The notes below the pieces were generated by a model. That model saw nothing but the letters and a program-made list of their open reading frames with translations. It was not told the origin of the DNA and ran no database searches. From Escherichia coli (lineage in GTDB: Bacteria; Pseudomonadota; Gammaproteobacteria; Enterobacterales; Enterobacteriaceae): 64,000 nucleotides of DNA. The position numbers were made by a program, and so were the translations under genes. The stretch lies in NCBI RefSeq assembly GCF_003334385.1, contig NZ_QOWN01000021.1. One strand, given 5' to 3'. How positions within the stretch are numbered: the first letter of the stretch is position 1; every line of letters begins with the position of its first letter. Below, in pieces: positions 28,348 through 29,673 of the stretch.

Positions 28348-28555
28348 ACACTACTCCGGTTATATTTTTCTTCCATGATATATTCACTTAATCAATGTTT
28401 TTTGCGTATATATTTTTATTGATTATGTTTTTTTGCTTAACTCAGGATTAAGTTTTTCTAAAATAGCACAGCCACTTAGGGCAGAGCGAGCAATTCATGC
28501 TTTTTTAGGATGGTTGAAAAGCAGGGATATAGTTCAACCATCCATGAATTACCTT

Positions 28556-29302
28556 TTATTTATTCCCCATAATGATATTAAGCGTTTTCTGATCGGGCAA
28601 CCCCACGGCCTGTTGTAGCGTATTTTCCTTACTCATGTAATAGATAGCCGGCGTGACATTTGCCCCCAGATCGTCCATCAGTTTCTCATTGTCACTTAAC
28701 ACTTTCATTTGCTCTGTACTTACGTTTGCAGGCACGTTTAGCTTAAGCTTGCCACCAGAGGCTTCATATTGTTGCCAGGTTTTTGCGGGATCTTTGGAGG
28801 CAAGAATTGCCGCTGCTGTCGCCGGGCTTTCTGGCTTGATAACCCCAACCAACAATGTTCTTAATTGCACTTTGCCAGAATCTACCCACGGGCGCGCCTG
28901 CTGCCAGAACTGTTTACAATATGGGCAGAACGGATCGGCGAAGACGTAGACAATGACCGGCGCATCTTTTTTACCGTCGAGGAGCCAGTGGGATTGTTCC
29001 ATCCGTTGCCACATTTCGCGTCCGGCTGGTGCGTAAATTTCTTTTTCGATAAGTGTGTTACTCAGGTTTTCACCTTTCTCGTTGTACATGTAACCAGAGA
29101 TAGCGTGCTTACCATCTGGAGTCAGGTAGATGGTGACGCCCATATCCTGATACTTTCCGAGATAACCTTTCATTCCTCCGGGGGCATCGAATGTTTTGAT
29201 GATTGTAATGCCCTGTTTTTCAATCGCTTTTACTGGAGCAGGAAGTTCCTCTGCGAAGGCGATTGCAGGAAGCAGAGCCAGTAAAAGTATCTTTTTTAAC
29301 AT
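28556..29302 (-). CDS. dsbG: Periplasmic thiol:disulfide interchange protein DsbG
   Basis: 248 aa from [17 protein letters not shown] (signal peptide), CPYC active site; ORF extends 20 codons upstream to 29362 (older 268-aa call). Confidence 0.9.
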
Positions 29303-29673
29303 TAATTTGTCCTTTTCAGTCAGTGCAAAAGTCGAGTAAAAGGCATAACCTATCACTGTCATAGGTAAGAGCTTAGATCAGGTGATTGCCCTTTGTTTAT
29401 GAGGGTGTTGTAATCCATGTCGTTGTTGCATTTGTAAGGGCAACACCTCAGCCTGCAGGCAGGCACTGAAGATACCAAAGGGTAGTTCAGATTACACGGT
29501 CACCTGGAAAGGGGGCCATTTTACTTTTTATCGCCGCTGGCGGTGCAAAGTTCACAAAGTTGTCTTACGAAGGTTGTAAGGTAAAACTTATCGATTTGAT
29601 AATGGAAACGCATTAGCCGAATCGGCAAAAATTGGTTACCTTACATCTCATCGAAAACACGGAGGAAGTATAG

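Follow-up and report, generated by a model that had tools for sequence, protein, structure and literature searches.

Upstream of the methionine that opens the DsbG signal peptide, the dsbG reading frame of Escherichia coli continues to an earlier ATG, raising the question of which of the two is the start codon, and of what the DNA between dsbG and the divergent ahpC gene does. We examined this region within a 64-kb stretch of E. coli DNA, hereafter the window. The 1.3 kb of interest matches E. coli chromosomes at 100% identity, and 5423 of the 5426 complete E. coli genomes contain it; across E. coli as a whole, the spacer between the two genes is conserved at ~99%. Our reading, which we hold with a probability of about 0.88, is that the locus is the E. 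coli dsbG/ahpCF divergent control region, functioning as already described there. The start of dsbG, its signal peptide and the OxyR-controlled dsbG–ahpC spacer are textbook-level knowledge for E. coli, and the current annotation is correct. The features discussed below are collected in Table 1.

Table 1 Features of the dsbG–ahpC locus, in window coordinates.
Feature	Position	Strand	Remarks
ybdN			RefSeq; leftmost in the gene order ybdN, citR, dsbG, ahpC, ahpF
citR (= ybdO)	27445–28347	minus	RefSeq
dsbG 3' stem-loop	28508–28543	minus	Perfect 11-bp stem, 14-nt loop, outer stem to 28489–28553
dsbG	28556–29302	minus	248 codons plus stop; RefSeq CDS of an identical strain maps to the same coordinates
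ybdO transcription start	28565	minus	218-nt leader, 8 reads; Kim et al. 2012
ybdO/citR promoter, TTGCCC-17-TATCAT	28565–28600	minus	Inside the end of dsbG, upstream of the hairpin
Sec signal peptide, 17 codons	29252–29302	minus	Hydrophobic core peaks here; cleaved before EELP
Shine-Dalgarno AAGGA	29310–29314	minus	7 nt upstream of ATG 29302; read from sequence
OxyR-type operator A, dsbG-proximal	29339–29375		Centre 29357, 55 bp upstream of ATG 29302
Upstream in-frame ATG	29360–29362	minus	Part of the CTAT(G) element of OxyR site A
Distal ahpC-direction sigma-70 promoter, TTGCCC-17-TGTAAT	29386–29414	plus	Both hexamers conserved; predicted start ~29421
STnc70-like structured RNA (putative)	29421–29525	plus	Leader of the predicted distal ahpC transcript; three or four hairpins plus intrinsic terminator
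dsbG transcription start	29460	minus	158-nt 5' UTR including site A and the upstream ATG; Kim et al. 2012
OxyR-type operator B, ahpC-proximal	29577–29613		Centre 29595; 13/20 consensus positions
Proximal ahpC transcription start	29650	plus	24-nt leader; Kim et al. 2012 TSS table
ahpC	29674–30237	plus	RefSeq
ahpF			RefSeq; after ahpC in left-to-right order

The dsbG frame ends at a TAA stop codon (28556–28558) and carries two ATGs, one at 29302 and one 20 codons further upstream, at 29362; it remains open for 5 codons beyond the upstream ATG, to 29377, and is then closed by an in-frame TGA (29378–29380). The original prediction correctly saw a frame open for 20 codons above the signal-peptide methionine, and took from it that two N-termini were possible. 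This ambiguity does not hold up, as the Shine-Dalgarno sequence, the orthologues, RefSeq, PDB and UniProt favour the downstream ATG. We compared 66 orthologous dsbG loci from species-representative genomes with the window, and found AAGGA or a near variant at the same place in nearly all of them. An ATG aligns with Met1 in 56 of the 66, alongside a conserved Shine-Dalgarno sequence, and a stop codon at most 20 codons upstream shuts the dsbG frame in 44, within 3 codons in most Citrobacter. The bases preceding ATG 29362, AAGCTCTTACCT, contain no Shine-Dalgarno sequence.

The protein points in the same direction. Read from 29302, the 248-residue form has a canonical Sec signal peptide, with an MLKK n-region, a hydrophobic core and a terminal AFA, cut before EE. 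In the 268-residue form, the hydrophobic core would begin at residue 25, buried 20 residues deep behind an acidic/basic stretch, and the claim that a canonical signal peptide results from one of the starts alone is thus borne out for 29302. The same 17 residues constitute the signal peptide in UniProt P77202, as quoted in PMC10278209. Residues 21–268 of the long open reading frame match PDB entries 5G1L and 5G1K over 248 residues with 100% identity; 5G1L begins at the methionine of ATG 29302, and 1V57 and 2H0G begin at the mature Glu18 (EELP; residue 38 of the long frame). The translation also carries the CPYC active-site motif (CXXC). Computed masses are 27.49 kDa for the 248-residue precursor, 25.67 kDa for the mature protein and 29.78 kDa for the 268-residue form. 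Andersen et al. reportedly gave 27.5 kDa for the DsbG precursor and 25.7 kDa for the mature protein in 1997, and this agreement with the computed values of the shorter form favours ATG 29302. Five independent lines, namely the Shine-Dalgarno sequence, the orthologues, the signal peptide, the PDB chains and the masses, therefore favour the downstream start. DsbG would be translated from there as a 248-residue precursor, with a 17-residue Sec signal peptide and a 231-residue mature periplasmic protein. With comparative and annotation evidence all pointing to 29302, the start-codon ambiguity appears not to be real.

What, then, is the upstream ATG? We scanned both strands of the whole window, ~128,000 positions, for matches to the classical OxyR consensus, ATAGnTnnnAnCTAT-N7-ATAGnTnnnAnCTAT, whose four elements lie on one DNA face and specify 20 positions. 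The best match in the entire 64 kb, with 16 of the 20 positions agreeing, is the dsbG-proximal site A, and the upstream ATG lies within it, in ...CCTATGACAGTGATAGG..., at the centre of the consensus match. To follow this operator across species, we used 58 loci with divergent dsbG and ahpC, comprising 57 others and the window. The core of site A, CTTACCTATGnCTGTGATAGG, is conserved 43–57 bp upstream of dsbG in 57 of these, the homologous site being missing from the remaining one. The frame of the ATG that it contains varies: it is out of the dsbG frame in 31 loci, in frame and followed by a stop in 12, replaced (CCTATAG) in 6, and in frame and open in just 8, from Escherichia, Salmonella, one Kosakonia and one Franconibacter. 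Along the 20-codon stretch, only the operator is conserved, and there is no coding pattern. A conserved operator with a drifting ATG frame, and conservation that ends with the operator, indicate that the triplet at 29362 is operator DNA and not a start codon, and that the apparent ambiguity is an accident of frame. The ATG would be kept as the DNA element 'CTAT-G' of a conserved OxyR operator rather than as a codon, which explains why it persists in frame upstream of dsbG; frames open upstream of a start may, more generally, be regulatory DNA.

Counted from ATG 29302, the dsbG–ahpC spacer is 371 bp long. The 311 bp of the original prediction correspond to 29363–29673, and must have been counted from the upstream ATG; the interval is correctly measured, but since that ATG lies inside site A, its boundary cuts the operator in half. 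The prediction had not recognised this second OxyR-type operator, which is close to dsbG and encloses the upstream ATG. Its expectation of an OxyR site in the spacer proved right, with two OxyR-type sites matched (at 16 and 13 of 20 positions) and two OxyR sites placed between dsbG and ahpC in PMC6389858. As its own grounds for refutation it had named initiation exclusively at 29302 together with a lack of OxyR binding in the spacer; the former is favoured here, whereas the latter is contradicted by PMC6389858.

The second-best OxyR match in the spacer, site B, lies in a strongly conserved block, and in nearly all loci compared 79 bp separate its centre from the ahpC ATG downstream. It covers positions −73 to −37 relative to the proximal ahpC start and abuts the −35 element on the upstream side. 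Site A ends 10 bp before the −35 element of a predicted distal promoter and lies upstream of this promoter (TTGCCC-17-TGTAAT), which is aimed at ahpC. The centre of site A is ~64 bp upstream of the predicted distal start, one helical turn more than the 55 bp between the centre of site B and its own start. The centres of sites A and B are exactly 238 bp from each other. Zheng et al. (2001) reportedly described a new OxyR site whose centre is 54 bp upstream of dsbG and lies 238 bp upstream of the ahpC site already known, and sites A and B are presumably this pair. Based on this geometry and that description, we tentatively assign site B to the proximal and site A to the distal ahpC promoter. OxyR would presumably occupy both sites.

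Transcription starts from Kim et al. 2012 were placed by locating in the window the upstream sequences published with them (a 51-nt sequence for dsbG, ending at 29460). The dsbG start obtained in this way adjoins neither OxyR site: it lies upstream of site A, and 135 bp separate it from site B. Opposite this start is the predicted distal ahpC promoter, and the two transcripts would overlap head to head by ~40 nt. The fold of the 158-nt dsbG leader is no more stable than those of shuffled sequences (z = −0.6), and we dropped the idea of a structured leader governing start choice because of this. For the distal promoter, the same TTGCCC-17-TGTAAT is assigned to ahpC in an RpoD genomic-SELEX paper (PMC3946193). 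The one table searched for its start, the TSS table of Kim et al. 2012, lists no plus-strand start near 29421, a position which we predict from the promoter. A 6-codon open reading frame is present at 29417–29437; its bases are not conserved. As for the effect of OxyR on dsbG, open-access papers disagree, with accounts of activation (PMC6389858), possible repression, or no change at sublethal H2O2.

The mapped dsbG start lies inside a further conserved element, which on the plus strand resembles a known structured RNA. Rfam family RF02069 (STnc70) matches 29436–29529 with 42.7 bits against a gathering score of 40 (E = 1.6e-6), in an alignment spanning model positions 1–149 with a 57-nt deletion, and the family was found at the same place, on the ahpC strand, in 15 of 20 other enterobacterial dsbG–ahpC loci. 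Across 51 aligned loci, the hairpins are conserved and include G-U pairs that form only on the plus strand; a GC-rich terminator stem (29498–29517) is also present, and the U-tract after it is conserved. This terminator escaped a consensus terminator scan. Term-seq data place a 3' end at MG1655 position 638796, 149 nt upstream of the ahpC ATG; its intrinsic-terminator score is 5.17, it shows no Rho dependence, and it is not annotated as a known element (Adams et al. 2021). This position is 29525 in the window, 8 nt past the terminator stem. The distal transcript would accordingly be a structured RNA of ~105 nt, homologous to Salmonella STnc70 and ending at the intrinsic terminator, and read-through of this terminator would yield a longer ahpCF transcript. 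In the literature searched, we found no function or description of the STnc70-like RNA; matches to the name were only to STnc700 and similar.

This arrangement leads us to a speculative proposal, which we consider rather doubtful as a whole: site A might mainly drive the ~105-nt STnc70-like RNA, with its peroxide-induced transcription occluding or antagonising the basal dsbG promoter, and with read-through adding to ahpCF. Since the RNA unit runs head-on over the dsbG promoter and its start at 29460 and stops just past it, induction would have such an effect on dsbG. If this were true, antagonism at the dsbG promoter could explain why papers conflict on whether OxyR activates or represses dsbG. 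If site A drives the RNA, it would be a second OxyR-dependent small RNA besides OxyS.

At the other end of dsbG, the original prediction had noted an 11-bp inverted repeat, described as near-perfect and reaching to 28546. The repeat is present, but it is perfect, with 11 of 11 positions paired (GGATGGTTGAA, 28508–28518; TTCAACCATCC, 28533–28543), and the earlier end was 3 nt too far. The resulting hairpin starts 12 nt past the dsbG stop codon, and a weaker outer pairing, AATTCAT/ATGAATT, stretches it to about 28489–28553. A perfect inverted repeat of at least 11 nt with a loop of 3–40 nt is expected 0.01 times in this 1.4-kb region (8 of 1000 shuffles had one). On the dsbG-sense strand the fold has −23.0 kcal/mol (z = −4.6), and none of 200 shuffles was as stable; the opposite strand gives −19.5 kcal/mol (z = −2.9). 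Nearly all orthologues have a hairpin at this place behind the dsbG stop, whichever gene comes next. This fold stability and the covariation described below bear out the earlier suggestion of a real hairpin after dsbG.

In an alignment of 24 sequences from Escherichia, Citrobacter and Pseudocitrobacter, 9 of the 11 stem pairs show two-sided changes, for example from GGATGGTTGAA/TTCAACCATCC to GGATAACTGAA/TTCAGTTATCC in another Escherichia species. Overall, 87.5% of stem cells pair, versus 27–59% with slid partners, and the 11 wobble cells favour the dsbG-sense strand, being mismatches on the opposite one. Within E. coli, the stem arms are invariant and the loop is variable. Together, the covariation, the wobble bias and the invariant arms indicate that the hairpin is an RNA structure on the dsbG transcript. 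In E. coli the stem is followed by UAAAAAAG (tail UAAAAAAGCA) and lacks the U-tract of a canonical intrinsic terminator, whereas several other genera have a U-tract after the stem on the dsbG sense strand and with it a canonical terminator. A consensus terminator scan missed the hairpin, and four Term-seq supplementary tables contained no dsbG or ybdO 3' end; dsbG is weakly expressed. In addition, the start of ybdO lies upstream of the hairpin, so an efficient terminator at this place would abort ybdO transcripts. The hairpin is probably a leaky terminator or a 3'-end-protecting stem-loop; it would mark or stabilise the 3' end of the dsbG mRNA, with the U-tract lost in Escherichia.

Alternatives to these readings must be weighed, beginning with the dsbG start. 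Initiation might occur at both ATGs, giving a minor 268-residue DsbG isoform with a 20-residue N-terminal extension, perhaps retained or exported differently. The upstream ATG is indeed part of the transcript, being contained in the mapped 5' UTR, the frame from it is open in Escherichia and Salmonella, and the spacer hardly varies within E. coli. We nevertheless regard dual initiation as very improbable: the absence of an upstream Shine-Dalgarno sequence speaks against it, only the eight loci mentioned above have the ATG in frame and open, and the conservation is explained by the OxyR operator. Outside the operator the extension is poorly conserved, E. coli differing from Salmonella MSVIGIIINTLFALILKGKN; the operator palindrome places the upstream AUG partly in a small hairpin; and all curated resources give DsbG as 248 residues. 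For the conserved block at 29436–29529, the question is whether it could be the minus-strand promoter and 5' UTR of dsbG instead of an RNA of the ahpC strand. The dsbG start and its −10/−35 region do fall within the block, yet its many G-U/U-G pairs form on the plus strand only, and only on that strand does the GC-rich hairpin with its U-tract read as a terminator. The plus-strand Term-seq 3' end just past the terminator stem, together with the definition of RF02069 on the plus (ahpC) strand, further argues for an ahpC-strand RNA, and we consider the promoter an unlikely full account of the block. The dsbG-promoter and ahpC-strand-RNA readings are compatible with each other.

The inverted repeat downstream of dsbG could likewise belong to the neighbouring gene, as an element of the ybdO/citR leader or as a regulator-binding palindrome, for instance for CitR itself. 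The ybdO start is upstream of the repeat, at the edge of a promoter-like site found in the sequence (28565–28600), so that the hairpin occupies +22 to +57 of the ybdO leader, and the Escherichia hairpin has no U-tract. This origin seems improbable to us, as the hairpin also follows dsbG where ybdO is absent (in several Citrobacter, Kosakonia and Pectobacterium loci), and as several genera do carry the canonical U-tract on the dsbG sense strand. Moreover, the stem sequence shifts while its pairing is kept, with double changes in 9 of 11 pairs, a signature of RNA structure and not of a sequence recognised by a protein. We rejected a protein-binding palindrome on this covariation, and a plus-strand terminator on the strand bias of the wobble pairs together with the covariation. 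An RNA structure on the dsbG transcript remains our reading of the hairpin.

Within this otherwise well-described region, the only element with research value is the conserved, terminated but uncharacterised STnc70-like RNA, which lies between the OxyR sites and faces the mapped dsbG promoter. Should it be induced by OxyR, a second small RNA or an attenuator would be added to the peroxide regulon.

In comparison with known systems, the locus is the dsbG–ahpCF region of E. coli K-12 with its two OxyR sites (Zheng et al. 2001), from which it shows no sequence difference. Its DsbG is identical to the periplasmic thiol:disulfide interchange protein and sulfenic-acid reductase of UniProt P77202 and PDB 1V57 and 5G1L, whereas the 268-residue reading has 20 extra residues that occur in none of the curated DsbG entries. 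The hairpin after dsbG resembles enterobacterial intrinsic terminators and 3' stabilising stem-loops in following the stop codon, in its conserved position, in its covariation and in folding on the sense strand; the E. coli hairpin differs from intrinsic terminators in its 14-nt loop and in having UAAAAAAG in place of a U-tract. The putative RNA shares with STnc70, the Salmonella-defined family RF02069, its strand, its position between dsbG and ahpC, and its conserved hairpins and terminator. The E. coli copy does not have the 59-nt insertion present in the Salmonella RNA, its terminator stem, with one mismatch, is the weaker of the two, and it scores 42.7 bits against RF02069, compared with 186 for Salmonella arizonae.

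Between the two OxyR-type sites of the dsbG-ahpC spacer (29339-29375 and 29577-29613) lies a conserved structured RNA, homologous to the Salmonella sRNA candidate STnc70, which contains an intrinsic terminator. Published Term-seq data place its 3' end at 29525, and we found no characterisation of this RNA among searchable papers. Its transcription unit crosses the dsbG promoter, and the mapped dsbG start faces a predicted distal ahpC start, such that the dsbG RNA and the predicted distal ahpC RNA would overlap head-to-head by ~40 nt (29421-29460). Published work disputes the effect of OxyR on dsbG, with activation reported in some papers and repression in others.

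Features of the dsbG-ahpCF locus (window positions)
Feature	Position	Strand	Remark
ybdO/citR promoter, TTGCCC-17-TATCAT, with mapped transcription start	28565-28600	-	inside last dsbG codons
Distal ahpC transcription start, predicted	~29421	+	faces mapped dsbG start
STnc70-like structured RNA, conserved	29421-29525	+	Rfam RF02069 homology
dsbG transcription start, mapped	29460	-	faces distal ahpC start
Terminator-like GC hairpin and T-run	30375-30394	+	between ahpC and ahpF

In E. coli strains compared through loci L072 and L073, the 1.3-kb dsbG region is only 94.7-96.5% identical overall, but the dsbG-ahpC spacer, compared over 29295-29470, is ~99% identical. By this sequence comparison, constraint on the dsbG-ahpC regulatory DNA is stronger than that on the dsbG coding sequence. 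Database matches to the region (H1 and H2) list one strain, LAU-OXA, with an IS1 insertion within it. Two matches fall on plasmid-typed records, for example NZ_CP110860.1 (113-kb, 100% identity), which may be mis-typed chromosomal contigs.

At the other end of dsbG, ybdO/citR transcription starts within the last dsbG codons, and therefore the dsbG 3' hairpin also lies within the ybdO leader (218 nt), at +22 to +57. Like dsbG, ahpF has an upstream in-frame ATG (30452-30482, +), its longest open reading frame running from 30452 (531 aa) and the RefSeq annotation starting at 30482 (521 aa). In a published table (Kim et al. 2012), a transcription start for ahpF falls within the ahpC gene, at ~29937. 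The only Rfam matches in the ahpC-ahpF spacer, to V_AS5 and CssrA (30192-30362, -), score below threshold.

The Salmonella version of STnc70 differs from that of E. coli, Citrobacter, Klebsiella and other genera in carrying a ~59-nt insertion with its own hairpin (L017, 2204-2352, and L018; Salmonella arizonae and diarizonae), which accounts for the 440-bp length of the Salmonella dsbG-ahpC spacer.
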